Position numbers and translations under genes: made by a program
Virus record (IMG/VR): IMGVR_UViG_3300027805_000002
Length of the DNA: 60,176 nt
Strand: one strand, 5' to 3'
Source of the DNA: a virus
The notes under the pieces: generated by a model
What the model saw: the letters and a program-made list of their open reading frames with translations, nothing else
What the model was told of the DNA's origin: nothing
Databases searched by the model: none
Shown here: positions 998-59,780 of the stretch, in pieces
Numbering within the stretch: the first letter of the stretch is position 1
Layout: the number at the start of each line of letters is the position of its first letter

Positions 998-2200
998 TCA
1001 GACGGTGGGGGTGACAGGGGCCACCGTCTTGAGCACGACCGCGTTGCCCTTGAGGGCGTCTTCGATCATGTTCGCGTCGACGTTGGCAGCCCACAGCTGT
1101 TGCAGGATCTCGTGGCAGTCGAGCGGCGCACGGTTCACGACCGCAAGCTCGTAGGCCTCGCGGGGAGCGATGCCGTCGAGCAGGGCCTCGGCGAGGTAGA
1201 AGGCCTCGCGCATCGTGGGCGGCGACTCCAGAGCGCCGGTCTCGGCCTTGCTGCGCGCCACGCACAGGAAGTCCGCGATCAGGCGGGCCAGCGCCGGGTT
1301 CGCACCGGTCTGGCTCACGATGATCTCGGCCTCCTCGTCGGCAGGCAGGTAGGCGAACTGCGCGAAGTACGCGAAGCGGCTCAGGAACGCGTTGTTCTGC
1401 TCACGCAGACCCGCGTACACACCAGCCGCATCGCCGCGCCCGTTGCTGTTGTCGGCAGCGAAGAACGTGACGCCGGGGCCCTTCTTCACGACCTCGCCCG
1501 TCTCCGGGATGGTCACGATGCCGATCGGCTCAAGAGCCGCATGCAGCGAAGACGTGTACTCAGGACGGGCGAACCCGACCTCGTCGAGCAGGATCACGCA
1601 GCCGGGGCGGCGGAAGCCTTGCAGCACGAGGCCGTCCTGCCAGACCGTCGAGGCCGCCTTGGCGCGCTCCCCGCCGATCACGTGGTACGCCTCAAGCGAG
1701 GCATCGAACTGCACCCGCAGGAAGCCGCGGCCCAGACGGGCACACAGCTGTCGCACGAACTCGGTCTTGCCGGTGCCGGCAGGCCCACCCAGCCACATCG
1801 GCCGGCCCCGCTTCAGGGCCGACAGGGCAGCCTTGAGGTGCTTCGGGTTGAACCGGTAGTCGGCCATCGGCTCGGGGGCGCCCGGGTCGTTCCAGAGCTC
1901 GACCTCGACGTCCGCGAGGCCCTTGACCCCGGGGAACGCCTTCGAGGCCCGCACGGTGGCCACGACCTTGATGTCGTAGACCGGCGGGGCGTACGAGGGA
2001 ACCGGGACAGGAGCCGGCACGATGCCGGAGATCAGGGCGCTGCCGCCACCCTTGACCAAGGCCTCGACGCTGTCCCGCGAGGCCGCGGCCAGCAGCTTGG
2101 CAACCAAGCTCTCCTTGGTGGCCCGGGCATAGTCGCCCATGGTGACGCCAAGCTGGCGCCCGATGGAGACAAGCTCCATCTTCGACAGATCTTCGATCAT
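998..2200 (-). CDS. AAA+ ATPase, MoxR/CobS-like (AAA_5 type)
   Basis: Walker A is GGPAGTGKTE and Walker B is VILLDEVG. An ATG at 2200 has a GGAGG SD; the track ORF 998..2275 starts further upstream. The gene sits directly upstream of the CobT-like and VWA genes. Confidence 0.75.
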   Translation of the reverse strand: MIEDLSKMELVSIGRQLGVTMGDYARATKESLVAKLLAAASRDSVEALVKGGGSALISGIVPAPVPVPSYAPPVYDIKVVATVRASKAFPGVKGLADVEVELWNDPGAPEPMADYRFNPKHLKAALSALKRGRPMWLGGPAGTGKTEFVRQLCARLGRGFLRVQFDASLEAYHVIGGERAKAASTVWQDGLVLQGFRRPGCVILLDEVGFARPEYTSSLHAALEPIGIVTIPETGEVVKKGPGVTFFAADNSNGRGDAAGVYAGLREQNNAFLSRFAYFAQFAYLPADEEAEIIVSQTGANPALARLIADFLCVARSKAETGALESPPTMREAFYLAEALLDGIAPREAYELAVVNRAPLDCHEILQQLWAANVDANMIEDALKGNAVVLKTVAPVTPTV

Positions 2201-2306
2201 CGCGATCCTCCGCGCTGGGGTGCGGCCCAGCAACCGTCGAGCACTAAGCTCACAGATGCACGGCAACCCGCGCATCGGTGAGCCCCCGCAGCGGGGGCAG
2301 CACTCA

Positions 2307-2507
2307 TCAATCCTCGTTCCAGCAGCGCATCGAGGACGTCTCTGCCCCCGTCATCGGGCGCATCTCGCCCTCCCAGTCGCAGAGGAACTCGATCTTGAAC
2401 CCCTTGTTGCGCAGGCTGTCGCCCTCGTAGTCAACCTGCCACCACTGGGCAGAGGAGACGACCGCGGCGAGGTCACCAGAGGGGGAGTAGGCGTTCAGGA
2501 CGTACAT
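2307..2507 (-). CDS. hypothetical protein
   Basis: Track ORF 2307..2519. The ATG at 2507 is preceded by a GGAG SD. It is the first gene of the wrap-around minus-strand operon. Confidence 0.45.
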   Translation of the reverse strand: MYVLNAYSPSGDLAAVVSSAQWWQVDYEGDSLRNKGFKIEFLCDWEGEMRPMTGAETSSMRCWNED

Positions 2508-2860
2508 CAGAAGCTCCAAGCCACCGTGCGGGGTGGCAACCGTTCGAGCATCAGGCTCGCATCAGCACCCGGGCAGGGCGCTCATGCGAACCGGCCGACA
2601 CCCCGTTCAGGGGAGGCAACCGGCTCGATACATGTTTTCACCGGCATTCAGTGGGGCAAGCCACCCGATCCGCCGTCCGACCGTATACAGGGCCGTTCTG
2701 TCCGCTGCCGCCAGCCTCTCGACTGGCACCCGGTGTCCCGGGGGAGCAGCGCCCGACAGGAAGCCAGTCGGGCACGGCGCTGGTTGTCCACCCACCAGCA
2801 GGAAAGATCAGAGACTCCGGAGAGTCGTCGATCAGCAAGGCCAACCGACAGGAATGATTC

Positions 2861-2889
2861 TTGCACAGCTGTGGGATCGGTGCAATACG
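2861..2889 (+). promoter_or_regulatory. Candidate promoter for the late (+) block: TTGCAC-N17-AATACG, with the -35-like box overlapping ACAGCTGT
   Basis: The sequence is ttgcACAGCTGTgggatcggtGCAATACGt, about 100 nt upstream of terS. The same architecture recurs at 31891-31918. Confidence 0.35.
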
Positions 2890-2986
2890 TGCGTGGATTG
2901 GTGCAGGAAGACACGCGTGGAGCTTGTACAACGATACGTGGAAGTGGTAAATTTACGTTCCAGATCAACCACTTAGGCCAACACGC

Positions 2987-3640: not shown

Positions 3641-3947
3641 TTTCATTGGTGATCTGGACGGATAGCGCAGCCGTCTGCACCTGATTCCACAGCTGTGCCC
3701 GGCGGGCCGTCAGCACTCACCGCGGCGCAGCAGGGGGCGGCGTGGGGGGGCGGGGGGGGCATGCGGACCACGGCGGCCGACCCCGGGGGGTCGAGCCTCT
3801 CCTCTCCCCACCCTTCACGCACTACCGGCGACCGCAGCCGTGTATCGCTCCCCACACTGCACGGTGCCCCCCCCTGTTGGACCCACAGCAGGAGACGCCG
3901 GGGTACTGCTTGTTTTGCCGGCAATATCAGCAAAGGCCCCTTAGGGC

Positions 3948-4199
3948 TCAGTGCAGGCTGGCTTTGTCGAAGCTTCTCAGGATCATGCCGGCAAGGCGCC
4001 AGATGTCGGTGTGATCACCGATCTCCCTGAGGTTGAACTCGGTCTCGAACATGTGGGGCTGGCCGTAGAGGTTGCACAGCCCGGTGATCTTGGCGAGATG
4101 GGGGGCGAGGATGTTGGTGGAGCGGACCTGCACTGTGCTCAGGGGCCCGCCGATGGAGTTCAGGGCTTGCTCAAGGAGTTCGGGAGGGATGTGGGACAT
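3948..4199 (-). CDS. hypothetical protein (reverse-oriented gene inserted between terS and terL)
   Basis: An 83-codon ORF with strongly G/C-ending codons. An in-frame stop lies 12 nt upstream of its ATG. Confidence 0.5.
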   Translation of the reverse strand: MSHIPPELLEQALNSIGGPLSTVQVRSTNILAPHLAKITGLCNLYGQPHMFETEFNLREIGDHTDIWRLAGMILRSFDKASLH

Positions 4200-4223
4200 G
4201 TTGGCCTTTCAGAGGGGCTTCCC

Positions 4224-4331
4224 CCTGTTCTTCCACTTCTTCCACTTCTGCAACTTCTCCCTGTTCTCCCTGTTCTCCTTGTTCTTCCTGTTTTTCCTGT
4301 TCTTCCTGCTCCGCAGCTTCTTCCTCTTCTT
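4224..4331. repeat. About 12 tandem copies of a degenerate 9-bp unit (CCTGTTCTT)
   Basis: Direct reading. On the minus strand the array reads as E/Q/G/V-rich triplets (EEEEEAAEQEEQEKQEEQGEQGEQGEVAEVEEVEEQG). Confidence 0.8.
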
Positions 4332-4647
4332 CCCGCGCCCCCACTGCTCTCCTACTGTCTTCCTCTGTCCTAGTACTGCTGTTTACTCTTGAAGCACTAC
4401 CACTTGGTGGTGAGGTCGGTGGCAGCCCTTCCCACCGAAGTAGGAATGACTGCGACGGGGGCACCTCTCGTATGGAGCCGGCCGTACGGCCCCCACCTTT
4501 GCGACGCACGGGCGTGGAGTTCGCCACCCGCTTCCGGTTCTTCCGCGTCTTCCCACAGTACCGGTACTGCGCATGCGCCCTGCCGTCCTGTGCTCCGACG
4601 ACGCATGCAGGCCTGACTGTATCAGAGCAATACGTCTGGTGTGGGGG

Positions 4648-4684
4648 CAAAAAAAGGCCTCCTGAGCCGAAACTTAGGAGGCCT
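4648..4684 (-). terminator. Canonical intrinsic terminator on the minus strand (9-bp stem AGGCCTCCT/AGGAGGCCT followed by U7)
   Basis: The minus strand reads AGGCCTCCTaagtttcggctcAGGAGGCCTTTTTTTG. No minus-strand ORF lies upstream of it (to its right). Confidence 0.6.
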
Positions 4685-4725
4685 ATGCCCCGCACATAAG
4701 AAAGGCGGGGATCAGGGAGGAACAA

Positions 4726-6231
4726 ATGACAACGGGGACGAGTATACCGACGATACGTCCAAGGTGGCACAATCTGCGCGTATTGAGGGGGAAGATGGCG
4801 GGATTGAACTACGTGCCGCCCGGGCCTCAGGCTCTGGCGTTCCATCAGGATGACTCGTTCGGCCGTGGGCTGATGGGCCCAGTCGGGTCGGGCAAGTCGT
4901 CGGCCTGCTGCATCGAGATCTTCTACAGGGCCTTGAGGCAGAAGCCCGGCCCGGACGGGATCAGGCGCAGCCGCTGGGCGGCGATCCGCAACACCTACGG
5001 CGAACTGAAGTCCACCACGATCAAGACGTGGTCGGATTGGTTTGAAGGCATGCAGAACATGCGCTGGGACACCCCGATCGTTTCGACGATCAGGCTGGGG
5101 AACATCGGCGATGGGACTGGGCTGGAGCTTGAGGTGCTGTTTCTGGCCTTGGACCGACCTGACGATGTCGGCAAGCTCAGGTCGCTGGAGTTGACCGGGG
5201 CTTGGCTGAATGAGGCCTCAGAACTTGAGAAGGCGGTTCTGGACATGTGTACGCAGCGGGTGGGGCGATACCCCTCGATGCGGATTGGCGGCCCGACGTG
5301 GACCGGCGTGATCATGGACACGAACCCCCCGGACGACGACCACTGGTACTACAAGCTGGCGGAAGAGGAGAAGCCGGAAACCTACTCCTTTTTCCGGCAG
5401 CCCGGGGCCCTGTACCGCGTCACGGACAGGAAGGATCCGGAGTTCGGGAGGTACAAGTCCAACCCGCTGGCCGAGAACATCCGCAACCTTCGTGGCGGCT
5501 ACCAGTACTACCAGCAGCAGATCCCCGGCAAGACCGAGGACTACATCCGGGTCTTCATCTGCGGCGACTACGGCACGACGATGGACGGCAAGCCCGTCTA
5601 CCCGGAGTGGAACGACAAGCTGCACGTCTCTCCGGTCCAGTTGTCTCCAACGCCGGGGATCCCGCTGGTGCTTGGGTTTGACTTCGGCCTGACCCCAGCC
5701 TGCATCATTGGCCAGATGCGCCCGAATGGGCAGGTAGTGGTGGTTGAGGAGCTTGTGTCTGAAGACATGGGCATTCGCCAGTTCTTCAGCGAAGTCGTGC
5801 TTCCGATGCTCAACGGGAAGTACCGCAGCTTCAGGATTGAGGCTGTTGGCGACCCCGCGGGGGCGAACCGGTCACAGACCGACGAGCGGACCTGCTTCGA
5901 GGAGCTGTCGGATCTGGGCCTTGAGTGCGAGCCCGCAATGACCAATGAATTCGTCAAGCGGCGGGAGTCGGTGGCGTTCTTCCTCCAGCGCATTAGCCAG
6001 TCTGGGCCCGGGTTCCTGATCGACCCATCTTGCCGGACCCTGATCAAGGGGTTTCGTGGCGGCTATCGGTATGAGCGCCTCAAGACCTCAGGGCCCGCCC
6101 GCCATAAGGACCGCCCAACCAAAGACAAGTTCAGCCATCCCCATGATGGCCTTCAATACCTGTGCCTCCACCTTAGAGGCGAAATGCAGCCCACGAAAGC
6201 CCGGCAGGTCGAAAGCGTCGCTTGGGCATAG
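4726..6231 (+). CDS. terL: terminase large subunit
   Basis: Walker A is GPVGSGKSS, and a VIMDTNPPDDDHWYY nuclease/ATPase-type motif is present. The 501 aa size and position upstream of the portal fit. A GGGAGG SD precedes the start. Confidence 0.85.
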   Translation: MTTGTSIPTIRPRWHNLRVLRGKMAGLNYVPPGPQALAFHQDDSFGRGLMGPVGSGKSSACCIEIFYRALRQKPGPDGIRRSRWAAIRNTYGELKSTTIKTWSDWFEGMQNMRWDTPIVSTIRLGNIGDGTGLELEVLFLALDRPDDVGKLRSLELTGAWLNEASELEKAVLDMCTQRVGRYPSMRIGGPTWTGVIMDTNPPDDDHWYYKLAEEEKPETYSFFRQPGALYRVTDRKDPEFGRYKSNPLAENIRNLRGGYQYYQQQIPGKTEDYIRVFICGDYGTTMDGKPVYPEWNDKLHVSPVQLSPTPGIPLVLGFDFGLTPACIIGQMRPNGQVVVVEELVSEDMGIRQFFSEVVLPMLNGKYRSFRIEAVGDPAGANRSQTDERTCFEELSDLGLECEPAMTNEFVKRRESVAFFLQRISQSGPGFLIDPSCRTLIKGFRGGYRYERLKTSGPARHKDRPTKDKFSHPHDGLQYLCLHLRGEMQPTKARQVESVAWA

Positions 6232-6239
6232 GAAACGCC

Positions 6240-8138
6240 ATGGACATGAGCCTGCCCCCCACGATCCCTGACACCGTCATCACTTCTTTGTCGGCACACA
6301 TCGAGAAGTGCTACAGCGAGGCCAAGCAATCCAAAGAGCAGATCACGCAGCGCCTGCTTTCTTGCCACCGCCAACGCAAGGGCGAGTACGAGCCGCGGCT
6401 GCGGGCCATGATCGCGCAAAGCGGTGGGCAGGAAATTTTCATGATGCTCACGGACATCAAGTGCCGCGCCGCGGACGCTTGGATCAAGGACGTGATGCAG
6501 AACCACAACGAGGCCACGTGGGCGCTGAACCCGACCACTGAGCCGGAATTGCCGCCGGAAATTGGGGCGGAAATTGAGGGCGTGGTGATGCAGGAGGCTG
6601 CCGCAGTTGCAGCCTCTGGCATGCCGATCGAGCCCGAGACGATGTCGATGCGGCAGAACGAGGTCCTTCAGGAGGCCACTGTCAAGGTCCGCGAGGAGGC
6701 CACCCTGCGATGCAAGCGCATGGAGGACCGGATCATCGACAAGCTGGAGGAGGGTCGCTGGAGAGACGCCCTCGGCGAGGTGATCTACGACTTCACAACC
6801 TACCCCGCCGCCTTCATCAAGGGCCCGGTGCTGCGCAAAAAGAGGCGCATGAAATGGGGCCCAAACTTCACACCCGTGGTGGCTGAAGAGGTGGTGATCG
6901 ATGTCGACCGCATTTCCCCGTACGACATCTTCCCCGGACCGTCTGCCGTTTCAATTCAAGACAGCTATTTGCTTCATCGTCAGCGGCTGACTCGATCCGC
7001 TCTGCGGAACATGAAGGGCCTCAAGGGGTCTCGCCCAGAAATCATTTCCGAGGCCATCAATCAATTTCGTGAAGGCTACAGAACAATTCTGCCGGGCGAC
7101 AACGAATACGAGCTACTCAACAACAACAATTTGACCCACAACGCGGACGGCCTTTTCGAGACTCTCGAATACTGGGGGCCGGCAGCTGGTTTTATGTTGA
7201 TTGAGTGGGGAATGACCGAGGTCGACGGAAATCCTGTTGACCCGGACGACGAATATCAGATAAATGCGTGGAAAGTCGCAAACCACGTTATCCGGGTTGT
7301 GATAAATCCGGACCCGCTTGGTCGTCGCCCGTATTCAAAAGCCTGCTTCGAGGAAATTCCCGGGTCCTTCTGGGGCACAGCGCTGCCGGAAATGATGAAG
7401 GATGTGCAGATCATGTGCAACGCCTCGGCCCGCGCCTTGGCCAACAACATGGGTCTAGCCTCCGGCCCGCAGGTCGAGGTCAACGTCGACCGCCTGCCAC
7501 CCGGCGCCTCGATCACCAGCATGTTCCCGTGGAAGGTCTGGCAGACCACGAACGACCGCTCTGGCTCTGGCCAGCCGGCGATCCGGTTCTTCCAGCCCGA
7601 CATGAACGCGGCCGAGCTCCTGAACGTCTACCAGCACTTCACCCGGGTCGCGGACGAGGTCACGGGGGTGCCGAACTACGTCTATGGCAGCACCAACGTC
7701 TCTGGTGCCGGCAGAACAGCCTCCGGCCTGTCGATGCTGATGGAGAACGCGGCCAAGGGCATCAAGCACGCCATCATGGCGCTGGACCGGGCCAACTCTG
7801 AGGTGGTCCACCGCATCTACACCCACCTGATGATGCATGACCCGGATCAGGCCATCAAAGGCGATATGCAGGTCGTGGCGGCCGGGGCCATTGGCGCCAT
7901 GATCCGCGAGCAGCAGGAGGTTGCCCGCCGCGAGTTCATGGCCGCAACTCTCAACCCGGTCGACACCCAAATCATCGGGGTGGAGGGCAGGGCTTATATG
8001 CTTCGGGAAACTGCCAAGGGCATATTCCCGGACATCGACAAGGTAGTCCCGAATCCCCAGCGGATGAGGGAATTGATGATGCAGCAGCAGCTGGCGGCAC
8101 AACAAGCCGCTCCACAACAAGAAACCCCCATGGCTTGA
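6240..8138 (+). CDS. portal (head-tail connector) protein
   Basis: About 632 aa, immediately after terL, with the start overlapping the terL stop region. The C-terminal part resembles podovirus connectors by eye. Confidence 0.7.
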   Translation: MDMSLPPTIPDTVITSLSAHIEKCYSEAKQSKEQITQRLLSCHRQRKGEYEPRLRAMIAQSGGQEIFMMLTDIKCRAADAWIKDVMQNHNEATWALNPTTEPELPPEIGAEIEGVVMQEAAAVAASGMPIEPETMSMRQNEVLQEATVKVREEATLRCKRMEDRIIDKLEEGRWRDALGEVIYDFTTYPAAFIKGPVLRKKRRMKWGPNFTPVVAEEVVIDVDRISPYDIFPGPSAVSIQDSYLLHRQRLTRSALRNMKGLKGSRPEIISEAINQFREGYRTILPGDNEYELLNNNNLTHNADGLFETLEYWGPAAGFMLIEWGMTEVDGNPVDPDDEYQINAWKVANHVIRVVINPDPLGRRPYSKACFEEIPGSFWGTALPEMMKDVQIMCNASARALANNMGLASGPQVEVNVDRLPPGASITSMFPWKVWQTTNDRSGSGQPAIRFFQPDMNAAELLNVYQHFTRVADEVTGVPNYVYGSTNVSGAGRTASGLSMLMENAAKGIKHAIMALDRANSEVVHRIYTHLMMHDPDQAIKGDMQVVAAGAIGAMIREQQEVARREFMAATLNPVDTQIIGVEGRAYMLRETAKGIFPDIDKVVPNPQRMRELMMQQQLAAQQAAPQQETPMA

Positions 8139-8193
8139 TTTTGTACACAAGCAATACGTCAAGCTATATACTCAACAGTGCGAGGTATCTAAC

Positions 8194-8937
8194 ATGAACC
8201 GAGACTACGGCAAGAAGTTGCAGCCCACCCAAAAGATGGCGGAGGGCGGCAGTGTCGGTCTATTGGAGCGCCTGCGGGCCGGGAATGTCGACGAGCCCGG
8301 GTCCGAGGCCAATATGCGCTGGGGGTCAGGCAAGAAGGCGATGGACGCCGCCGTTGCCGCCGAGCAGGCCAGCCGCGCCCCTCTGCCGAGCGCCGAGGAC
8401 AACATGCGGGCAGTGCGCGACTCGATCGCCGCTGACGCGCCCAAGATGTCCGAGTCAGAGAGGAACAAGTTCGTCGATGCCAACGCCTCCCCGGCCGGCG
8501 CTGACGCACTTGAGGACAACGACCCCCTCAGCAAGGTCATGAAGCCCGCGGCCGCTGCCGCCGCCCCTGCCCCTGCCCCCGCAAAGCGCCGCAAGGCCCC
8601 TCCCGCTGCAACGGGCGGCGCTGCTGGTGGGCTCGCCTCTGGCCTGAAGTACGGCCGAGATAGCGCTTTGGAAGCTCGTGCTTCGGCGCCTGCGCCTGAT
8701 AAGCAGACCATCGAAATCACTGGCAAGCGTGTCCCCAAGGATTCTTCTTCCATGTCCTTGGCCGAGCGCATGTCTGCTTCTCGCGAACGTGCCCGCCTTG
8801 GCGCATCTGAGACCGACAGCAGGCCTATTGGGCAAAGGCTCAGGGAGGCGCTTGGCCTGAAGGACGGCGGCATGGTGAAGGGCTACGCCAAGGGCGGCAT
8901 GGTCTCGGACGGCCGCAGCTACGGGAAGAAGTGCTGA
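8194..8937 (+). CDS. hypothetical Ala/Pro-rich, probably disordered head-module protein
   Basis: Track ORF lying between the portal and scaffold genes. The composition is low-complexity. Confidence 0.5.
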   Translation: MNRDYGKKLQPTQKMAEGGSVGLLERLRAGNVDEPGSEANMRWGSGKKAMDAAVAAEQASRAPLPSAEDNMRAVRDSIAADAPKMSESERNKFVDANASPAGADALEDNDPLSKVMKPAAAAAAPAPAPAKRRKAPPAATGGAAGGLASGLKYGRDSALEARASAPAPDKQTIEITGKRVPKDSSSMSLAERMSASRERARLGASETDSRPIGQRLREALGLKDGGMVKGYAKGGMVSDGRSYGKKC

Positions 8938-8938
8938 C

Positions 8939-9175
8939 GTGACCAACCCACCCGTCGAGGTCCTTCAGGCCATTGGCCGCCTGAACGCCAACTCCGACTT
9001 CAAGCGGATGTTGGCGTGGCTCGACGAACAGAAATCAACAGCTGTCGAGAGTCTTCTCGACCAGCACCTAGAGCATCGTGTGCTGCACAAACAGGGCTAT
9101 GCCCTGTGCATGCACGACATCCTGCGGGTCTTTGAATCCGCGTCCGTCGCGCTGGAACGCCACGCCAGCGTGTAG
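8939..9175 (+). CDS. hypothetical protein
   Basis: Track ORF with a GTG start 2 nt after the preceding stop. Confidence 0.45.
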   Translation: MTNPPVEVLQAIGRLNANSDFKRMLAWLDEQKSTAVESLLDQHLEHRVLHKQGYALCMHDILRVFESASVALERHASV

Positions 9176-9275
9176 CCGTGAATACCCGTACAGAGGCAAC
9201 AGCTGTGAACTGCGAACACCGGAATCGGCTCGCACAAAGCACGCTCACCCTTGAGTCGGGCTCAGGAGAAATTTG

Positions 9276-11830: not shown

Positions 11831-12472
11831 ATGGCGCTGCTGTCGTCCTTCACTCCGCGCATTGCCTACAGGGTCGACGGCTGCCCAGACATCACCATCG
11901 AGCAGGCGGTCTTGGACTCCTGCATCGACTTTTGCGAGCGCACCCACATCATTCGCCAGACCCTCGACCCCGTGACCACAGTTGTTGGCGTCAAGGAGGT
12001 CGAGCTTGATTTGCCGCCGGGCACAAGGCTGGCCAACATCATCAAGGTGTGGGTCGATGACCGTGAGATAGAAGCCACCTCCGAAGAGGAGGTCGGCACT
12101 CCTCTTGCCCATGTCGATTCCGTGCCCGGCGTCGAGTCAACGAACTCTGTGCCGGCTTGGTACATCGAGTCAACGCCCGGCTCGATCCGGCTATTCCCGG
12201 GGCCCGACAAGGCCTACACGGTGACAGTCAGGGCCGCACTCAAGCCATCCAGAGCCGCCACCTCGGTCGACGACATCCTGTTTGAGAACTGGATGAACGC
12301 GATCGTGGAGGGCGCTCTGGCAAGGCTCTACTTGATGCCGGAAGTCTGGGCCAACCCGGGCCTCGCGGCCGCAAGCGCAAAGGCGTTCCTTGCCTTCGCC
12401 TCATCTGCCTCCGCCGAGTCCCGGCAGGGCCGCGGGCGCGGAGAGATGCGGATTCGTCCGGTGTGGATATAG
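11831..12472 (+). CDS. hypothetical virion protein (possible head-completion or adaptor protein)
   Basis: Track ORF. The suggestion rests on position between the head and lysis/tail genes only. Confidence 0.4.
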   Translation: MALLSSFTPRIAYRVDGCPDITIEQAVLDSCIDFCERTHIIRQTLDPVTTVVGVKEVELDLPPGTRLANIIKVWVDDREIEATSEEEVGTPLAHVDSVPGVESTNSVPAWYIESTPGSIRLFPGPDKAYTVTVRAALKPSRAATSVDDILFENWMNAIVEGALARLYLMPEVWANPGLAAASAKAFLAFASSASAESRQGRGRGEMRIRPVWI

Positions 12473-14221: not shown

Positions 14222-14224
14222 CCA

Positions 14225-18673: not shown

Positions 18674-18676
18674 CAC

Positions 18677-51022: not shown

Positions 51023-51691
51023 TCAAAGACGCACAAATTTCGCCACAACGACGATGCGGCCCACCACCTTGAGGGCCTTCATCGCTGCCGGCGACATGAC
51101 CACCGGAGCTTCGGAGCCGGCCGACACAGTTGTCTCGCCGGCAGCGCTGCGCGCCACTCGGCGCAGCATCGGGGAGCCGCCGCCGCGGATCACAAGGTAT
51201 ACGCCGTCGCCTGAAATGGCCTTCACAGCTGTGTCGACAATCACGGTGTCGCCGTCCGATAACTCGGGGGCCATGTCGTTGGTATCGATGGCTGCTGCGA
51301 TCAAGTTTTCGACAGCTGTGACGCGCCTGAAGAGCCCAGAGGCCTGCTTGGTTGAGACTGAAAGGCCAGACAACTGCTCGCATGCCCTTAGAGCGCCGCT
51401 CAAGGTTTCGTGTACCGGAGGCGCCTCGATTGTGGTCAGCATTTCCACAGTTGAGCCGTCGTGCGGCGTGTCTAGCCACCGTGCAGGCAGCCCCAGCTGC
51501 TGCTCAATTTTGCGAGCCAATATCTCGCCGAGGTTGCGCTTGTGGGCGTCGTTGCTGGACAGGATTAGGTTGATGTGGTTCGGGTGGGTGCCAGTGGCGC
51601 GGGAAAGCGCCGCCTTGTTGCCTTTGAAGCGGTCCAGCATCACCCGCTCTAAGTTCTGCTTCCGTACGGCAAACACAAGCTCTTTGTCCAT
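51023..51691 (-). CDS. cI: CI-like repressor (HTH plus S24 LexA-like C-terminal domain, catalytic dyad apparently substituted)
   Basis: An N-terminal HTH (KAALSRATGTHPNHINLIL). The C-terminal part reads NDMAPELSDGDTVIVD...GVYLVI...MLRRV...VVGRIVVV. Confidence 0.75.
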   Translation of the reverse strand: MDKELVFAVRKQNLERVMLDRFKGNKAALSRATGTHPNHINLILSSNDAHKRNLGEILARKIEQQLGLPARWLDTPHDGSTVEMLTTIEAPPVHETLSGALRACEQLSGLSVSTKQASGLFRRVTAVENLIAAAIDTNDMAPELSDGDTVIVDTAVKAISGDGVYLVIRGGGSPMLRRVARSAAGETTVSAGSEAPVVMSPAAMKALKVVGRIVVVAKFVRL

Positions 51692-52696: not shown

Positions 52697-54498
52697 ACGC
52701 ATCTGAGCTTTCACGGCTGATGTCGGACAACGCGGCGCAGGTCGCGCACCACCTCTTCCCCAATGGTCGCAAGGCATCCGGGGAGTGGAGGGTGGGGGGC
52801 TTGCACGGCGCAGAGGGTAGCTCTCTGTCCGTACGCATAGGCGGCGCCAAGAAGGGCGTCTGGTGCGACTTCGCCACCGGGGAGAAGGGTGACCTGATCG
52901 ACCTGTGGGCGGCAGTGCGCGGCCAGAGCTTGGCTGAGGCCATGTCCGACATCAAGCAGTACTTCAACGTCCGGGACGAGGTCAACAGGCCGCCGCCAAA
53001 GAAGTTCACCCCGCCAGACCGGTCCTTGTTCAAGAGGGCCAGCACAGCTGTCATCGATTGGCTTCGGGGCCGGGGCATCACCGAGGAGACCGTCGCCGCC
53101 TTCAAGGTGGCCCAGACGGTGAGGGAGGACAAGACCTACGCCGTGTTCCCATACCTAAAGGACGGCGCCCTCATCAACACCAAGGCCCGCAACATCTCTG
53201 ACAAGCGCGACATGCGCCAGTCGGCCGGAGCGCAGCCGTGCCTGTTCGGGTGGCACCTCGTCTCCGAGAAGGCTCGCACAGTTGTGATCTGTGAAGGCGA
53301 GATCGACGCCATGACGCTGTGGCAGGTCGGGATCCCGGCGCTGTCGGTCAATGCGGGGGCCGGCAACCATCAATGGATCGAGTCGGACTGGGATCGGCTG
53401 GAGGTCTTCAGCACGATCTACCTCTGCTACGACAACGACGATGCCGGTCGCAAAGGGGCCGCGGAGGTCGCGCAGAGGCTGGGCAACGACCGATGCAGGC
53501 TGGTGGTATTGGGGGCCAAGGATGCGAACGAGTGGCTGCTGCAAGGCGCCAAGGCAGAACAGTTCGTCGCAGCTGTGTCGGCGGCCAAGACCATGGACCC
53601 GGAGGAGCTTCGCTCGATCTCGGACTTCATGGGCGACGTCAAGAGCCTCTTCTACCCTGACCATAGCCAGCACTCATCACTGCCTTTGCTCAGGCTAGGC
53701 TCGTTGCAGTGCGACTGGTTCGAGTTCCGCCCCGGTGAGTTGACCGTGTGGACCGGGTTCAACGGTCACGGCAAGAGCTTGATGCTCAATCAGGTCCTGC
53801 TCGGGCTGATCGAGCAGGGCGACAAGGTTTGCGTGTTCAGCGGCGAGATGGTGCCAGCGTACCAAGGCAAGCGTCTCGTGAAGCAGGCAGCCGGGCTGGA
53901 CCGTCCGACCCCCGACTACATCGACGCCATCGGTGGGTGGGTGCAGGACAAGATGTGGCTGTTCAACGTCACGGGCTCAGCCAGCATCAGCAGGCTCACC
54001 GAGGTGTTTGGCTACGGCGCGAAGAGGTATGGCATCACGCACTTCGTCGTCGACAGCCTGATGATGACCGACGTCCCTGAGGATGGGCCGAGCGCCTTCA
54101 GCAAGCAGAAGGAGGCGATCCAGAGCCTGAGCTCGTTTGCTAAGGCGAACCGTGCCCACGTCCACCTAGTGGCCCACCCGCGCAAGGCGAGGGATGAGGG
54201 CGACATGCCGGGGAAGATGGACGTCGCCGGCTCATCCAAGATCACTGACGGGGCGGACAACGTGTTCACCGTCTGGTCGGCTCGGCGCGAGGCCGACGAC
54301 CCAGACCAAGACAAGCCGGATGCCTGCCTTGAATTGCACAAGCAGCGCAACGGCGACATCCAGCACAAGAAGCAGTGGCTGTGGTTCGACAAGGGATCGA
54401 TGCAGTACACGCCGGACAAGAGGCGCCGCCCTCACTGCTATGTACGTTTCAGCATCGAGAACATTAGGACTACGTATGACGACATCCTTCCCGACTGA
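52693..54498 (+). CDS. bifunctional primase-helicase (Toprim plus DnaB/gp4-like helicase)
   Basis: The Toprim motif is VVICEGEIDAMTLWQ, Walker A is GFNGHGKSL and Walker B is HFVVDSLMM. Confidence 0.8.
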   Translation: MNASELSRLMSDNAAQVAHHLFPNGRKASGEWRVGGLHGAEGSSLSVRIGGAKKGVWCDFATGEKGDLIDLWAAVRGQSLAEAMSDIKQYFNVRDEVNRPPPKKFTPPDRSLFKRASTAVIDWLRGRGITEETVAAFKVAQTVREDKTYAVFPYLKDGALINTKARNISDKRDMRQSAGAQPCLFGWHLVSEKARTVVICEGEIDAMTLWQVGIPALSVNAGAGNHQWIESDWDRLEVFSTIYLCYDNDDAGRKGAAEVAQRLGNDRCRLVVLGAKDANEWLLQGAKAEQFVAAVSAAKTMDPEELRSISDFMGDVKSLFYPDHSQHSSLPLLRLGSLQCDWFEFRPGELTVWTGFNGHGKSLMLNQVLLGLIEQGDKVCVFSGEMVPAYQGKRLVKQAAGLDRPTPDYIDAIGGWVQDKMWLFNVTGSASISRLTEVFGYGAKRYGITHFVVDSLMMTDVPEDGPSAFSKQKEAIQSLSSFAKANRAHVHLVAHPRKARDEGDMPGKMDVAGSSKITDGADNVFTVWSARREADDPDQDKPDACLELHKQRNGDIQHKKQWLWFDKGSMQYTPDKRRRPHCYVRFSIENIRTTYDDILPD

Positions 54499-55394: not shown

Positions 55395-55600
55395 TGAGCA
55401 AGGTCACGATCACGTTCGACATGCCTGAGGAGGCTGACTCATGTCAGATGGCGCTTAGGGGAGGACAGCTGTTCTCGGCGCTGTGCAGCATCGACAACCT
55501 TGCCCGCAATGTTCTCAAGCATGGTGACGGAGGCGGTAAGCACGATGCGCTGATCGAGATCCGTGAGTTGGTCGCTGAGGCCTTGGAGGGACTGAGGTGA
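55394..55600 (+). CDS. hypothetical protein
   Basis: ATG overlapping the preceding TGA (MSKVTITFDMPEE...). Confidence 0.45.
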   Translation: MSKVTITFDMPEEADSCQMALRGGQLFSALCSIDNLARNVLKHGDGGGKHDALIEIRELVAEALEGLR

Positions 55601-55911
55601 CGTACCGAAACCCAGCCATCCTCAAGGGGGCGAGAGGGCAGCCGTGCCAGTTCTGTGGGCGAGACGACGGCACAGTTGTGGCCGCTCACAGCAACAGCCA
55701 GAGGCACAACAAGGGCATGGGGCACAAGGCTCACGATGTCTTTGTGGCCTACCTGTGCCACAGCTGTCACAGCTTTGTGGATCAGGGCTCAGCTGCCCGC
55801 GACATCAGGGAGTCGGTCTGGATGGCTGCGCACGTGAAGACGGTGCCGTTGTTCTGGGGGCTGCTCGACGAAGAGGGTCGACAGCTGTTGATCGATGGGG
55901 GTAGCCGATGA
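55597..55911 (+). CDS. DUF1364/YbcO-like putative nuclease
   Basis: The pattern is GQPCQFCGRDDGTVVAAHSN...GMGHKAHDVFVAYLCHSCH. Confidence 0.5.
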   Translation: MTYRNPAILKGARGQPCQFCGRDDGTVVAAHSNSQRHNKGMGHKAHDVFVAYLCHSCHSFVDQGSAARDIRESVWMAAHVKTVPLFWGLLDEEGRQLLIDGGSR

Positions 55912-56249
55912 AGAACTTCGCTCTTGGTCGGCTCAAGTCCGGCGTAATGAACAAGACCGAGGCAGCCTACGCCGACTACCTAGAACAACAGCTGTCGGCT
56001 GGACAGTTGTTGTGGTGGAAGTTCGAGGCGCTGAAGCTCAGGTTGGCCGCCAACACGTTCTACACCCCGGACTTCCTCGTGATGAAGAAGAACAGGGAGA
56101 TACAGCTGTGCGAGGTCAAGGGCTACTGGATGGACGACGCGAGAGTGAAGATCAAGGTCGCATCCGAGATGTACCCGTTCTTCCAGTTCACAGCTGTAAA
56201 GGTCCGCGCCAAGAAGCACGGGGGAGGGTGGGAGGAGGAGGAGTTCTAG
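55908..56249 (+). CDS. DUF1064-like PD-(D/E)XK endonuclease (resolvase-like)
   Basis: The motif is YTPDFLV...LCEVKGYW. Confidence 0.5.
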   Translation: MKNFALGRLKSGVMNKTEAAYADYLEQQLSAGQLLWWKFEALKLRLAANTFYTPDFLVMKKNREIQLCEVKGYWMDDARVKIKVASEMYPFFQFTAVKVRAKKHGGGWEEEEF

Positions 56250-56635
56250 CCTGCGGCCTGCTTTAGCGCCAAGGTGACGCAGTACAAGGCAAGCTCCTCG
56301 AACATCCCCTCCAGCCTGATCTGCCGGCCCAAGTAATTCGGGGTTGCCGGATAGCCGAATCCCTTCGGCAGAAAGCCGGGCTCGGCGGCGTGCTCGGAGA
56401 GCTTGGCAGCCAGATCTTGTAGCGTTGGCGCACGCAGCACCCAGCACTTGTCGCGCTCGGTGGGCCACTCGCTGAGAAACCTGCACTCTGCGATGTGGCC
56501 GCCTGCGGCCTCCCTGTAGATCGCACAGATGAAGCCGCGCTTATCGCCGAGCAGGTGCTCGCGGCAGTGGCCAATCTGTTCTGCGTCGACGGTGAAGGGC
56601 AGGCCGCCAGTGGCCTGCAAGGTGACAGCTGTCAT
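56246..56635 (-). CDS. hypothetical protein
   Basis: ATG at 56635 overlapping the upstream stop (ATGA). It converges on the + block. Confidence 0.45.
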   Translation of the reverse strand: MTAVTLQATGGLPFTVDAEQIGHCREHLLGDKRGFICAIYREAAGGHIAECRFLSEWPTERDKCWVLRAPTLQDLAAKLSEHAAEPGFLPKGFGYPATPNYLGRQIRLEGMFEELALYCVTLALKQAAG

Positions 56636-56823
56636 AGGATTGAGGCGAAGATGATCGCATAAATCATCACCACCACAACCCAGAACACCCGCTCGATTTT
56701 GCGGTCGGCCTCCTCCTCCGGCATCTCGCAGGCCTGAGGCGTCGGGCATCTTTTGCGCCCCTGATGACAGCTGTCTTGGCAGCCTATGAAGGTGGGGTAG
56801 GTGTCCTTGAAGTCTTCGTTCAC
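56632..56823 (-). CDS. hypothetical Cys-rich tail-anchored membrane protein
   Basis: GTG at 56823 after a GGAGG SD. The C-terminal TM segment is VFWVVVVMIYAIIFASIL. Confidence 0.4.
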   Translation of the reverse strand: MNEDFKDTYPTFIGCQDSCHQGRKRCPTPQACEMPEEEADRKIERVFWVVVVMIYAIIFASIL

Positions 56824-57554: not shown

Positions 57555-57695
57555 CTATTTCTCCTCGGCGGGGTACGGCCCGCCAACCGTTGAGCACACT
57601 CGCTCACAGCTGGACCACAACAGGCACAGCTGTGAAAGTCGTGTTTTGGCACGTCTTCCACTCCGACATTAGGTTTTGTCGGTTTTGTCAGTGAG

Positions 57696-57959
57696 TCACA
57701 GGCCCCGCTGCGGATCCTTCTCGAAGTCGGTGATCTGCCAGCCGCCATCAACGCGGCTCATGACAGCAGTGCCTTCACCTAATAGGGCCAGCATGCGGGC
57801 TTCCTCCGCTGCGTCGCGGTGGCTGTCGAACAGCTGACTCGGTAGCTGGTACGCCTCGTAGCCGGTGTCGTAGCACCGGTAGCAGGTGTAGGGGCAGCCG
57901 GCCTCGTCGAGTTCCGGGTAGCCGCCGCAGGCGGAGCATTCAAGGCGCAGCAGCTTCAT
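57696..57959 (-). CDS. hypothetical Cys-rich small protein
   Basis: ATG at 57959 overlapping the upstream stop (MKLLRLECSACGG...CYRCYDTG). Confidence 0.45.
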   Translation of the reverse strand: MKLLRLECSACGGYPELDEAGCPYTCYRCYDTGYEAYQLPSQLFDSHRDAAEEARMLALLGEGTAVMSRVDGGWQITDFEKDPQRGL

Positions 57960-58561
57960 CACAGCCCCCACTTCTTAGCGCACACCGGGCCAATGCCGCG
58001 GACCACCGACTCCGCGGCGGTCAGGGGGCGGTCGCAGCACCCGCAATTGCCGCTGCGCCTGCCGTACGCGTCGAGTACGGCGGCAGGGTTGATCATCAGC
58101 GCGGCGATCGTGTCGGCCTGATCGGGCGAGCAGTCGTAGCTGCGGGTGAACCCGCTCCCGGCCACCTTGCCGAGGTAGGTGCCGCTCACGTCCTTCACGT
58201 ACAGGCAGCCGGGGTTCTTGCCGTTCTCGGGGGCCTTGGACACAACGACATCGAGCAGTCGTAGCTTGGGGCGCTTCAGCCCGGACGCGGTGGCGCGGTC
58301 GAAAGCCGCGTACAGCAGGTCGGCCGACACGGCTGTGGGCTGGACCTTGGTGCGGGCGATGTTCTTCTGCACGGCCGCCATCTGGTTCGGGGTCAGGCCG
58401 CCGTACTTGTTGACCGACGCCTTCAGAGAGGCCGCGAAGTTGTTGCCGGAGGCTGCGCTATCTTCGAGCCACTTTGCCGCTTCGGGGTACTCGGCGGCGA
58501 ACATCTGCCAGAGGGAGACCGCGACGACGGGCGCGGCGAAGTCGTGAACGACTGCATGCAT
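57959..58561 (-). CDS. DUF6011-domain protein
   Basis: The C-terminal CGCCDRPLTAAESVVRGIGPVCAKKWG matches the DUF6011 pattern. The ATG at 58561 follows a GGAGG SD. Confidence 0.5.
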   Translation of the reverse strand: MHAVVHDFAAPVVAVSLWQMFAAEYPEAAKWLEDSAASGNNFAASLKASVNKYGGLTPNQMAAVQKNIARTKVQPTAVSADLLYAAFDRATASGLKRPKLRLLDVVVSKAPENGKNPGCLYVKDVSGTYLGKVAGSGFTRSYDCSPDQADTIAALMINPAAVLDAYGRRSGNCGCCDRPLTAAESVVRGIGPVCAKKWGL

Positions 58562-58648
58562 GGGGAAGCTCCTCCCGGGGTGCCGCCCGGGTACGGTTGT
58601 GTGATTGACCACACTCCCATCCCCTCCAGTGAGGGGCAGGGGCTGGGG

Positions 58649-58900
58649 TCAGCGTGCCTTCGCGTCTATCGCATGCTGGATGGTCATGTCCAGCACCTCG
58701 GCTGCGGCGGTCCATGCGGTGTCGTCGAAAGACGCGCCCGCATAGATCGGCTTCCTGAGTTCGGCGAACACGGCCGGCAACAGCAGGTGGACCGCCGAGT
58801 CCCAGAAGCCTTTGTCAATGAACAGGGCGAGAGCTTTCTCCCTCGCCCCCTCGGTTGTGCGGTCGTTGAAGACCGCCACCGCAACTTGATGCATCTGCAT
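58649..58900 (-). CDS. hypothetical protein
   Basis: ATG at 58900 after a GGAGGGAAG SD (MQMHQVAVAVFNDR...). Confidence 0.45.
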   Translation of the reverse strand: MQMHQVAVAVFNDRTTEGAREKALALFIDKGFWDSAVHLLLPAVFAELRKPIYAGASFDDTAWTAAAEVLDMTIQHAIDAKAR

Positions 58901-58925
58901 CACTTCCCTCCTGTTGTTTACACGT

Positions 58926-59780
58926 TCATGCAGCGACGGGCTCAGCGTCAGGGGCCTTGCGGCCACGACCATCAAGCTGAGCGATGACAGCGCGCAAGGC
59001 GCCCTGAGCAAGGTCCTGCACCGACTCGATGCAGGCGAAGTATTTGTATACAAGGCCCATGGTGCGGGGGTCGGTCTGGATGCCGATGCCCACGACCGGG
59101 ACCTGCCACAGCTTCTCGCTCAGGTCCTTCATCTTCGCCATGTTCTCGGTGTCGCCAAAGCCGTCGGTGATCACGATGCACAGCTTGCGGTCAGCCGGCA
59201 CCATCGACAGCTGTTGCACAGCCGTGCGGATCACGTGGTAGTCCGGCGTCGACCCCTCCACGAGGCGTCCCATGTACTGGAACAGCACCTTGCGGTCCTT
59301 CAGCTTATGCGTGAAGTCCTTGAGCACCTTCGCGATGCCCGAGTACTTCAGGTCCGCGATGCCGGTGGCGCGGGAGCCCGCGCCGGGCAGGCCGTCGAGC
59401 CCGCGCATGTACTTGGGCTTGACCATGGTGTGCCCGTAGCCGCTGCTGAAGCCAAGGACCTGCACCATGCACCCGACGCGCTCGATTGCGTCTGCGATGC
59501 ACCATGCGGTCTGGCTGGCGGCGATGATGCGGTCACCACCCATGCTGGACGACAGGTCAATCACGATCGTCACAGCTGTCGTCACTGCGTCGGTCTCGAC
59601 GCGGCTCTTGAACACGCGTTCGCTGCCGGTCAGCATCCGGGGGATGCGGCGGACGTCGAAGCGTCCGGACGTCGCGCCGGTCTGCCAGCCGACACGATCG
59701 ACAGACAACAGCAGCTTGGACAGCTGTTGCTTCAGGCCGCCGACGGGGGCGTCGACGTTGATCTCGGGGGAATTGAACAT
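58926..59780 (-). CDS. von Willebrand factor A (VWA) domain protein, CobT C-terminal-like
   Basis: The MIDAS motif reads VTIVIDLSSSMGG. A strong AGGAGG SD is present. The gene lies directly downstream of the CobT-like gene. Confidence 0.7.
   Translation of the reverse strand: MFNSPEINVDAPVGGLKQQLSKLLLSVDRVGWQTGATSGRFDVRRIPRMLTGSERVFKSRVETDAVTTAVTIVIDLSSSMGGDRIIAASQTAWCIADAIERVGCMVQVLGFSSGYGHTMVKPKYMRGLDGLPGAGSRATGIADLKYSGIAKVLKDFTHKLKDRKVLFQYMGRLVEGSTPDYHVIRTAVQQLSMVPADRKLCIVITDGFGDTENMAKMKDLSEKLWQVPVVGIGIQTDPRTMGLVYKYFACIESVQDLAQGALRAVIAQLDGRGRKAPDAEPVAA

Follow-up and report, generated by a model that had tools for sequence, protein, structure and literature searches.

An 8-bp palindrome iterated throughout the genomes of a lineage of temperate SU10-like podophages

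The IMG/VR virus record IMGVR_UViG_3300027805_000002, a stretch of 60,176 nucleotides that was analysed at its full length and is referred to here as the window, represents the complete circular genome of a temperate phage with a unit of 60,145 bp, the same 31 bases being present at both ends, and a guanine-plus-cytosine (GC) content of 62%. Throughout this genome the 8-bp palindrome ACAGCTGT, which has CAGCTG as its core, is found exactly 47 times (0.78 copies per kb). The first-pass annotation of this DNA had counted at least 47 copies, and our recount arrived at this number at the same coordinates (Table 1). The phage encodes TerS and TerL, an SU10-type portal, capsid and adaptors, tail and fibre genes, a giant polyvalent protein and a tyrosine integrase. 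It also carries an S24 (CI-like) repressor, a replication initiator, a primase-helicase, an exonuclease, an NrdR/Ogr-like zinc-ribbon protein, and nucleases of the PDDEXK, YbcO/HNH and DUF1064 types, as well as a CobS-like ATPase adjoined by a CobT that is split into two proteins. The tRNA-Cys attachment site proposed earlier is real; its 47-nt sequence is GGTTGCAAATCCGTCTAGCCCGGTTCGACTCCGGGCCGCGCCTCCA, and no full tRNA was found in the window by ARAGORN. The sequence originates from a metagenome, and its exact TerL protein has no match on record. A near-identical copy of the phage in ENA (L177) measures 62,652 bp and contains approximately 679 additional bases between 46116 and 47873.

No null model reproduces the abundance of ACAGCTGT. 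Dinucleotide-preserving shuffles gave 1.0 copies on average and 5 at most, Markov models of order 0-4 predict 0.7-3.0 copies, and codon-order shuffles resulted in 6.5 +/- 0.7 copies. When synonymous codons were shuffled within each gene, which keeps each protein and the codon usage per gene, 8.8 +/- 1.5 copies were obtained, including 6 intergenic copies that were held fixed; for the coding copies this amounts to approximately 3 expected versus 41 observed. The excess is approximately 50-fold, and the octamer is the most frequent 8-mer of any kind in the window, the next palindromic octamer occurring 9 times. The core hexamer CAGCTG is present 84 times versus approximately 43 times in the synonymous-codon shuffles. 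Most of these hexamers (47 of 84) carry the A..T flanks, as had been noticed before, and the 37 outside the octamer are close to what the same shuffles allow.

The copies are read as ACA-GCT-GTN (Thr-Ala-Val, TAV) in 21 cases, as xxA-CAG-CTG-Txx (x-Gln-Leu-x) in 19 cases and through Ser-Cys once, while six are clearly intergenic. These six uphold the earlier statement that the octamer also occurs between genes; a seventh non-genic candidate, the copy at 2865, falls in a doubtful open reading frame (ORF). The octamer is spelled by 21 of the 30 Thr-Ala-Val tripeptides in the window and by 19 of the 30 Gln-Leu pairs that are followed by a codon starting with T. ACA and GCT are rare codons in the window (13% of the Thr and 15% of the Ala codons, respectively), CAG and CTG are its preferred Gln and Leu codons, and Thr-Ala-Val itself is, as estimated from residue counts, approximately 2.7 times more common than residue frequencies predict. 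The argument of the first-pass annotation that codon or dipeptide bias does not explain the motif holds and is stronger than originally stated. Its analogy with HIP1 (GCGATCGC), the highly iterated palindrome of cyanobacteria, also holds in a formal sense: ACAGCTGT is likewise palindromic and 8 bp long, its 6-bp core resembles a restriction-modification target, it is written against codon preference, and with 47 copies versus approximately 1-3 expected, at 0.78 per kb, it shows the at least 15-fold excess at about one copy per kb that characterizes HIP1-type elements.

All eight positions of the motif are required and invariant, and the motif is symmetric. One-mismatch variants, which had been thought to make up many of the other CAGCTG sites, are at expectation as a class (38 versus 32 +/- 4), with the exception of the central transition discussed below, and the one-sided 7-mers that lack the mirror flank are likewise as frequent as expected (NCAGCTGT, 5 versus 5.8; ACAGCTGN, 9 versus 7.7). 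In a pool of 131 sites taken from the window and related phages, 115 have C or A and one has T at position -1, and 102 have G or T and six have A at position +1. The preferred 10-bp form is thus C/A-ACAGCTGT-G/T with mirror-symmetric flanks, beyond which the surroundings of the copies are unrelated. Both the requirement for the full palindrome and the symmetry of the flank preference fit a dimer that reads duplex DNA. LexA-like CTGT-N8-ACAG and other half-site spacings are not enriched. The word CTGTACAG, in which the same half-sites have the opposite arrangement, has three copies in the genome, one of which, located between cI and cro, might serve as an operator.

The central transition (ACAGTTGT/ACAACTGT) is the sole enriched variant, with 10 copies versus 2.3 expected. 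Seven of the ten read ACA-GTT-GT or ACA-ACT-GT and have, therefore, kept the rare codons of the motif, which identifies them as decayed copies in which the central C changed to T on one strand. The second cytosine shows no such excess of transitions, and the relatives show the same trend more weakly. Methylation to 5-methylcytosine would make the central C hypermutable in this way, but this is suggestive only, since selection against CAG-to-TAG changes confounds the comparison. With its eight invariant positions and symmetric flank preference, the site has a form that could suit a Type II restriction-modification enzyme.

Related phages were retrieved through TerL (80 IMG/VR loci) and primase (22 loci), and closer relatives came from ENA, JGI and Logan assemblies. 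Among the 80 loci with a related TerL only L087 and L088 are enriched, and the 22 loci with a related primase have no copies at all. In the TerL tree the window forms one clade with L323 (13 octamers in 18 kb, GC 0.54), L334 (22 in 21 kb, GC 0.55), L336 (12 in 15 kb, GC 0.66), L337 (7 in 10 kb, GC 0.59) and L339 (9 in 7.8 kb, GC 0.60), so that every tested member of this clade is enriched over a GC range of 0.54-0.66. L322, with an integrase that is 78% identical, has 2 octamers in 2.2 kb (GC 0.64). A second enriched clade, with a TerL that is just 55% identical, comprises L087 (6 in 9.7 kb), L088 and L340 (13 in 21 kb). The sister clades of the window's clade (TerL identity 75-77%) are different: L324 is neutral, with 1 octamer and 18 CAGCTG in 19 kb (GC 0.65), and L326 (GC 0.61; 7.7 CAGCTG expected) and L327 (GC 0.64) possess neither octamer nor CAGCTG. 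Pooled, the enriched relatives have 0.79 copies per kb versus 0.0088 per kb in 176 other related loci (2.04 Mb). The comparison with related phages that had been proposed earlier thus reveals an enrichment that tracks phage clades.

The individual sites turn over between relatives. In nine genes aligned between the window and L323, L322 or L015 only one site is shared, in the CobS-like gene. In this small sample the copies are, therefore, not conserved across homologous genes, a point that the first-pass annotation had suggested checking, nor is there the conservation above control palindromes that is seen for HIP1-type elements. Instead, the alignments reveal that many sites arose by amino-acid replacement, with Thr-Ala-Val facing TGL, TSV or NAV and SQL facing NEV. 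Examples are DGTAVEL in TerL of L323 versus DGTGLEL in the window, SATAVDD versus AATSVDD in the adaptor, RESQLLD versus RQNEVLQ in the portal, and KASQLSD versus KAKEGGH in the integrase. Since sites were made by replacement and only one is shared, the force acts on the DNA, overriding the protein where this is tolerated, and does so separately in each lineage.

In the non-enriched relatives the core of the motif is under the opposite pressure. CAGCTG is completely absent from 43 of the 99 non-enriched related loci of at least 10 kb and from 29 of the 62 related loci in which at least 4 copies are expected, which makes it the palindromic hexamer purged most often in the family. L330 and L331, which have the same type of tRNA-Cys attP (phage attachment site), contain no CAGCTG at all, nor does Curvibacter phage PCA1 (L325, OP588919.1) in 50 kb at 56% GC. 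The latter phage encodes a DNA methyltransferase and has a tRNA-Cys-type attP adjoining its integrase. Other hexamers are purged as well (zero copies versus at least 4 expected, L015-L094 and L298-L331): CCATGG in 24 of 51, CGATCG in 20 of 57 and TGATCA in 19 of 56 loci. So many purged 6-bp palindromes indicate that this phage family is under very heavy Type II restriction pressure. The window itself lacks CTGCAG, CTCGAG, GTGCAC, GGTACC and GATATC entirely, probably a result of restriction-site avoidance against several Type II systems.

Along the window the copies occur in blocks, with the greatest density in the early and lysogeny region and eight octamers within 1.3 kb in the cluster at 55465-56767, which spans the YbcO/HNH-like and DUF1064 resolvase-like genes and in which five copies are spaced 88-121 bp apart. 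Between 40 and 41 of the 47 copies (87%) are intragenic, and the intergenic excess is only approximately 2-fold. Three blocks are devoid of octamers (Table 1), while in the remaining, "resident" blocks approximately 90% of the usable contexts are filled, as judged from the site list. The resulting regimes, i.e., rich, CAGCTG-free and neutral, are the same three states that are encountered among the related phages. Because the tail/fibre block lacks CAGCTG just as the avoiding relatives do, we read it as DNA imported from such relatives. The window would thus be a mosaic in which imported modules have yet to gain the signature. Within the giant polyvalent gene the octamer content is rich, none and rich again by block, which suggests a mosaic origin inside a single gene. 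The block-wise presence or absence of the motif may serve as a practical marker for dating imported modules in a mosaic phage genome.

Table 1. Positions of the octamer ACAGCTGT, its decayed copies, octamer-free blocks and other features of the window. Residues around coding copies are in one-letter code.
Feature	Position	Strand	Location and remarks
Octamer	1093..1100		CobS-like gene (998-2275, minus); xxA-CAG-CTG-Txx, QQLW
Octamer	1744..1751		CobS-like gene; RQLC; sole site common with relative L323
Octamer	2865..2872		Upstream of TerS, doubtful ORF, probably intergenic
Octamer	3689..3696		Intergenic, 53 bp upstream of ORF 3742
Octamer	9038..9045		ACA-GCT-GTC (TAV)
Octamer	9199..9206		Intergenic, upstream of scaffold-like gene 9273
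Octamer	13192..13199		Lysozyme gene; TAV
Octamer	13559..13566		SU10-adaptor gene; TAV
Octamer	13979..13986		SU10-adaptor gene; TAV
Octamer	24770..24777		QQLL
Octamer	24839..24846		QQLL
Octamer	26045..26052		N-terminal part of 1617-aa fibre-like gene; TAV
Octamer	26186..26193		1617-aa fibre-like gene; TAV
Octamer	31895..31902		Intergenic, 72 bp upstream of ORF 31967
Octamer	35739..35746		Giant polyvalent gene; QQLS
Octamer	36463..36470		Giant polyvalent gene; TAV
Octamer	36556..36563		Giant polyvalent gene; TAV
Octamer	36577..36584		Giant polyvalent gene; TAV; 21 bp from copy 36556
Octamer	36873..36880		Giant polyvalent gene; KQLF
Octamer	37675..37682		Giant polyvalent gene; TAV
Octamer	41806..41813		Giant polyvalent gene; TAV
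Octamer	42237..42244		Giant polyvalent gene; QQLF
Octamer	42747..42754		Giant polyvalent gene; RQLL
Octamer	42835..42842		Giant polyvalent gene; TAV
Octamer	43012..43019		Giant polyvalent gene; TAV
Octamer	43687..43694		Giant polyvalent gene; TAV
Octamer	43938..43945		Giant polyvalent gene; AQLL
Octamer	46116..46123		Integrase gene; SQLS; KEGG in relative L322
Octamer	47873..47880		MazG-like gene; AQLL
Octamer	48266..48273		Intergenic
Octamer	48559..48566		PDDEXK_14 nuclease gene; RQLC
Octamer	48956..48963		Exonuclease gene; TAV
Octamer	51225..51232		S24 (CI-like) repressor gene; TAV
Octamer	51312..51319		S24 repressor gene; TAV
Octamer	53044..53051		Primase-helicase gene; TAV
Octamer	55465..55472		GQLF; opens the cluster of 8 copies
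Octamer	55760..55767		YbcO/HNH-like gene; sole third-frame copy (HSCH)
Octamer	55881..55888		YbcO/HNH-like gene; RQLL
Octamer	55988..55995		DUF1064 resolvase-like gene; QQLS
Octamer	56102..56109		DUF1064 resolvase-like gene; IQLC; sole window copy with T at -1
Octamer	56190..56197		DUF1064 resolvase-like gene; TAV; sole window copy with A at +1
Octamer	56625..56632		TAV
Octamer	56767..56774		Intergenic
Octamer	57626..57633		Intergenic
Octamer	59207..59214		CobT_C/VWA gene; QQLS
Octamer	59572..59579		CobT_C/VWA gene; TAV
Octamer	59720..59727		CobT_C/VWA gene; QQLS
Central-transition variants	3617, 11978, 16556, 24096, 31961, 34626, 51126, 53278, 55672, 56003		
ACAGTTGT, decayed copy	11978..11985		Central C to T; ACA-GTT-GT, rare codons
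TerL/portal block	4000..9000		No octamer, 2 CAGCTG; part most alike to relatives
Tail/fibre block, 10.1 kb	13987..24085		No octamer, no CAGCTG; 0 of 5 usable TAV or xQL(T) contexts filled
Mid giant gene (Zeta-toxin and MuF_C region)	37683..41805		No octamer, 6 ordinary CAGCTG; "neutral" block
Shared terminal 31 bases	1-31 and 60146-60176		Circular or terminally redundant assembly
CobS-like AAA_5 ATPase	998..2275	minus	
CobT N-terminal protein, 446 aa	987..1 joined to 60145..59792		HETGH (HExxH) motif, long poly-Asp/Glu tail
CobT_C/VWA protein	58926..59780	minus	
TerS	2987-3640		
Betaproteobacteria-1 RNA (Rfam)	4490-4609	minus	60.7 bits, above gathering score; just upstream of TerL, opposite strand
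TerL	4726-6231		
Giant polyvalent protein gene, 3441 aa	34600-44925		Zeta-toxin, MuF_C and LPD38 domains
attP core	44966-45012		3' 47 nt of tRNA-Cys (anticodon loop to CCA), directly upstream of integrase
Tyrosine integrase	45232-46419		Adjoins attP
cI/cro intergenic region	51692-51801		
CTGTACAG	51723-51730		cI/cro intergenic region
99-aa protein	57255-57554		

One gene module that accompanies the octamer is that for CobS and the split CobT. Homologues of CobS, the CobT N-terminal protein and CobT_C occur, among approximately 190 related loci, only in L323, L334, L335, L339 and L340, which are all octamer-enriched and come from both clades, and in the enriched loci without the module the sequence at hand does not reach the corresponding part of the genome. 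The trait is thus inherited along with one particular phage backbone, an association and not causation. The proteins of the window look like ordinary phage CobS and CobT, and as a cause they were rejected, as two deposited phages with CobS/CobT that we fetched hold no copy of ACAGCTGT. One could speculate that the acidic tail of the CobT N-terminal protein resembles a DNA mimic. A scan of approximately 50 ORFs with Pfam, PHROGs and PADLOC revealed no DNA methyltransferase or restriction enzyme, with PADLOC reporting nothing for the window; the cognate methyltransferase that accompanies HIP1-type elements in the same genome is thus not seen in the phage. A 99-aa protein that the window shares with L323, L334 and L339 was considered as the protein that reads the motif and set aside, since no family could be assigned to it and no relatives were retrievable. 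To our knowledge, no enzyme with the 8-bp site ACAGCTGT has been described.

Could the motif be a property of the hosts? The host can be placed in the Burkholderiales, to order level, on the basis of the Rfam Betaproteobacteria-1 RNA, the Burkholderiales genus names on integrase homologues and a primase homologue from a "Burkholderiales bacterium". The attP fragment did not help to refine this: it has no exact 42-mer match in IMG/VR, and its best matches in phage and plasmid collections are 82-93% identical and not diagnostic. Across 185,579 bacterial and archaeal species, one genome each was screened for triplets of the octamer at spacings of 87-117 bp. No genome with a dispersed enrichment of the bare octamer was found; the 82 stretches returned were local tandem arrays, except in L142. 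In simulations, a 4-Mb genome at the phage density contains 1.95 such triplets on average and is detected in 82% of the cases, which falls to 23% at 0.4 copies per kb and to 3% at 0.2 copies per kb. Since the clade is widespread and spans 12 GC points, its hosts should include several of the species represented. We conclude that the hosts do not carry the motif at a phage-like density, i.e., the hyper-abundance across the host chromosome that is typical of HIP1 was not observed with this detection power; the hosts may have a weaker, Chi-like enrichment. The idea of an element inherited from the host lineage, put forward in the first-pass annotation, is therefore not borne out, also because the enrichment follows phage clades at GC contents of 0.54-0.66, and neither the sister clades nor the phages that integrate at this type of tRNA-Cys site show it.

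The same type of scan of viral sequences retrieved tandem repeats only, and among the matches listed for metagenomes short-period satellites predominated. The bacterial arrays have a period of approximately 111-114 bp with ACAGCTGT in every unit and occur in unrelated bacteria from many phyla (L103, L108, L114, L121, L122, L140, L158 and L175). In L142, an archaeal metagenome-assembled genome with a GC content of 0.33, and in L182, a metagenome contig, a longer palindrome, CTCACAGCTGTGAG, is dispersed at 2-2.7 copies per kb in an AT-rich context; this is a different iterated element that contains the octamer by chance.

Taken together, one backbone lineage of temperate, SU10-like podophages with Burkholderiales-type hosts bears ACAGCTGT as its signature. 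As to its function, we tentatively favour, without placing great confidence in it, the explanation that a symmetric DNA-binding protein or enzyme, encoded on the phage backbone, recognises the copies, which are kept by density-dependent selection. We prefer this explanation because of the restriction to clades, the mirror symmetry, the turnover of sites, the mosaic deserts and the negative host scan. What we infer is a phage-encoded reader that acts as a dimer, and selection, instead of conversion drive, as the force. The binding-site option of the first-pass annotation, which named both phage and host proteins, survives in its phage version, while the data neither support nor exclude its recombination or nicking sites. 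In the proposed mechanism the octamer would be recognised by a symmetric, probably homodimeric reader of double-stranded DNA, and the benefit would be set by the number of sites in the genome, independent of their location, possibly because the sites help to mark, protect, silence or process the DNA of the phage itself. Selection acting on the DNA would then drive every tolerant Thr-Ala-Val and x-Gln-Leu-(T..) position towards the motif, to approximately 0.8 sites per kb, and would push many positions that need an amino-acid change in the same direction, while newly imported DNA (the tail fibres, TerL/portal and the middle of the giant gene) would start without sites.

Several points weigh against this explanation. 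The scan of approximately 50 ORFs yielded no candidate reader and no obvious 8-bp-specific binder, CobS and CobT are not DNA proteins, and their link with the octamer may merely mark shared ancestry. The persistence of ten decayed copies argues for weak selection per site, and the near-saturation of usable contexts, in which two copies can be separated by just 21 bp, resembles, by itself and together with the decayed copies, the outcome of conversion drive more than that of selection on single sites. That CAGCTG is the hexamer most avoided by the relatives points to a host restriction-modification factor and not to one of the phage, and a host enrichment below approximately 0.4 copies per kb would escape our scan. 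Furthermore, most of the enriched relatives are known just from pieces of 8-21 kb.

The main rival, which we nevertheless regard as rather unlikely, is a by-product of a host process like that proposed for GCGATCGC in cyanobacteria: a putative CAGCTG methyltransferase of the hosts, either an orphan or of the PvuII type, and a methylation-linked bias of repair or recombination on resident prophage DNA would generate and uphold ACAGCTGT. HIP sequences have been linked to cognate methyltransferases and occur at about one site per 1000 nt (PMC4390886), and the architecture of the octamer matches: it, too, flanks a restriction-modification-type core of 6 bp with a single base at either end and recurs about once per kb. 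CAGCTG-specific restriction evidently acts in the family, as is clear from the 29 purged loci, the two phages with the same attP and PCA1; the central C is the sole hypermutable position, as expected for 5-methylcytosine; and, being temperate, the phage spends long periods as host DNA. However, none of the 185,579 species representatives shows dispersed enrichment, and the GC range implies several host genera, yet sister clades and phages using the same tRNA-Cys do not have the motif. Under a host-driven process, tail-fibre DNA swapped among phages of the same hosts should also carry it, and repair of the very-short-patch (VSP) type would deplete rather than enrich ACAGTTGT.

A host "self" signal comparable to Chi seems quite unlikely. 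The octamer would attenuate a conserved host nuclease such as RecBCD, a clade without a nuclease inhibitor would accumulate it, and the hosts would have it at a lower density; a density of at most 0.2 per kb would indeed have escaped the genome scan. Chi enrichment has been documented in phages that depend on host recombination (PMC3784561). The benefit of such a signal would add up over the copies irrespective of their position and would count for phage DNA in linear or concatemeric form, and the presence or absence of an inhibitor could explain the clade specificity. The known Chi is, however, asymmetric and read on single-stranded DNA, whereas here only the full palindrome counts, its flanks are mirror-symmetric, and no one-sided asymmetric word is enriched (see the 7-mers above). 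Moreover, an exonuclease and recombination module is encoded by the phage itself, the approximately 50-fold excess and the 70-90% occupancy of usable contexts are far above reported Chi enrichment, and a 10-kb site-free block is tolerated. It is on symmetry, in particular, that this explanation fails.

Equally, the intragenic location of most copies makes it improbable that they are dispersed operators of the prophage repressor or another regulator, where a palindrome would silence transcription in either direction. In Cluster A mycobacteriophages many stoperators, which are bound by the repressor, are distributed across the genome (PMC9283540, PMC6550527). The genes of the temperate phage studied here include those for an S24 repressor and for an NrdR/Ogr-like zinc-ribbon protein, every intergenic copy is located just upstream of a gene, and the density peaks in the early and lysogeny region. 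Against this, the palindrome has no orientation, 40-41 of the copies lie inside genes and the intergenic excess is small, the cI/cro intergenic region contains no ACAGCTGT, and the late tail-gene block has none. The octamer has also been kept over 55-80% TerL identity, while immunity specificities usually diverge fast.

A DNA uptake sequence of a competent host, gained by the prophage through transformation-driven drive, is very improbable. Its density of approximately 0.8 per kb and coding copies that arose through both synonymous and non-synonymous changes do resemble the DNA uptake sequences (DUS) and uptake signal sequences (USS), but the genome scan, in which no host-like genome has such a density, largely refutes it, and the trait tracks phage clades, not hosts. 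Known uptake sequences are, moreover, asymmetric 9-12-mers, a property that the strict palindrome does not share. A trivial cause has a negligible probability: CAG and CTG are preferred codons and two Nextera mosaic ends, when joined, produce ACAG next to CTGT, but codon bias is excluded by the codon-preserving shuffles (approximately 3 versus 41 coding copies), and a longer dispersed repeat or a back-to-back Tn5 mosaic-end adapter artefact (GAGACAG joined to CTGTCTC) by the unrelated flanks beyond +/-1, the preserved reading frames and the independent ENA, JGI and Logan assemblies that show the enrichment at other positions.

Returning to the preferred explanation of a reader on the phage backbone, it is conceivable, although we advance this with considerable reserve, that the octamer constitutes a self-marking system. 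The phage clade would keep approximately 0.8 sites per kb of an 8-10-bp palindrome for a backbone-encoded symmetric reader, possibly co-inherited with CobS and the split CobT, and the mark, absent from the hosts, would distinguish, protect or organise the phage DNA, possibly having emerged from an arms race around CAGCTG restriction. Such a mark would be the equivalent in phages of HIP1, Chi or DUS. In the literature we found no report of the octamer or of a palindrome that is iterated genome-wide in a phage lineage but not in its hosts, and no paper tying HIP to CAGCTG. The octamer is mentioned in primers and eukaryotic E-boxes; in combination with palindromes or bacteria, only the parS sites of repABC are relevant. 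The repeated GTTGACAGCTGTCAAC 16-mers of L226 resemble such repABC parS centromere sites (PMC9040568). If a phage-encoded reader does exist, the motif would be a signal of a new type, serving viral self-recognition or the organisation of the genome, and would give access to a novel protein-DNA specificity. If a methylation-linked host process is responsible, it would be the first HIP-like element outside the cyanobacteria and would provide a small system that evolves rapidly in which to study how HIPs originate, a question that is now 30 years old.

Formally the motif sits with HIP1, DUS/USS, Chi and the stoperators, but it lacks defining properties of each. Iterated words such as Chi, DUS/USS, KOPS and HIP1 are properties of cellular genomes, and phages are mainly known for avoiding palindromes. 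This phage lineage does the opposite, having multiplied one palindrome approximately 50-fold to the same density despite a 12-point spread in GC content. DUS of the Neisseriaceae and USS of the Pasteurellaceae are asymmetric words that occur genome-wide in competent hosts and are read by the uptake machinery. Like the octamer, they are exact short words at approximately one per kb that are spread in genes by a force at the DNA level that changes amino acids; ACAGCTGT differs in being a strict palindrome that is restricted to phages. Stoperators measure approximately 13 bp, lie mainly between genes, follow the direction of transcription and are linked to an immunity group. Those of the Cluster A mycobacteriophages are comparable in that a lineage-specific short motif at many genome sites is read by a phage-encoded protein (PMC9283540, PMC6550527), but they are asymmetric (PMC9283540), whereas ACAGCTGT is an 8-10-bp palindrome that is largely intragenic and common to diverged phages. 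Chi, also an octamer with an additive, position-independent benefit, for more copies of which phage genomes can be under selection (PMC3784561), is asymmetric, orientation-dependent and modestly enriched, while for ACAGCTGT symmetry is required and the excess is far larger.

The closest likeness is with HIP1 and the alternate HIPs, which are also 8-bp palindromes with a tens-fold excess at approximately one per kb that occur in coding DNA against codon preference (PMC4390886, PMC5861425) and the function of which is unresolved (PMC4390886, PMC5861425). HIP1 is, however, found in host chromosomes across a phylum together with resident cognate methyltransferases and at sites that are conserved between genomes above expectation, whereas ACAGCTGT occurs in phage clades and at sites that are mostly not conserved, and the scanned ORFs of the window encode no methyltransferase. 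Restriction-site avoidance in phages, finally, resembles the situation described here in that CAGCTG is under strong selection at the DNA level in this family, but it differs in sign: close relatives purge the core hexamer entirely, while the clade of the window multiplies one flanked version of it.

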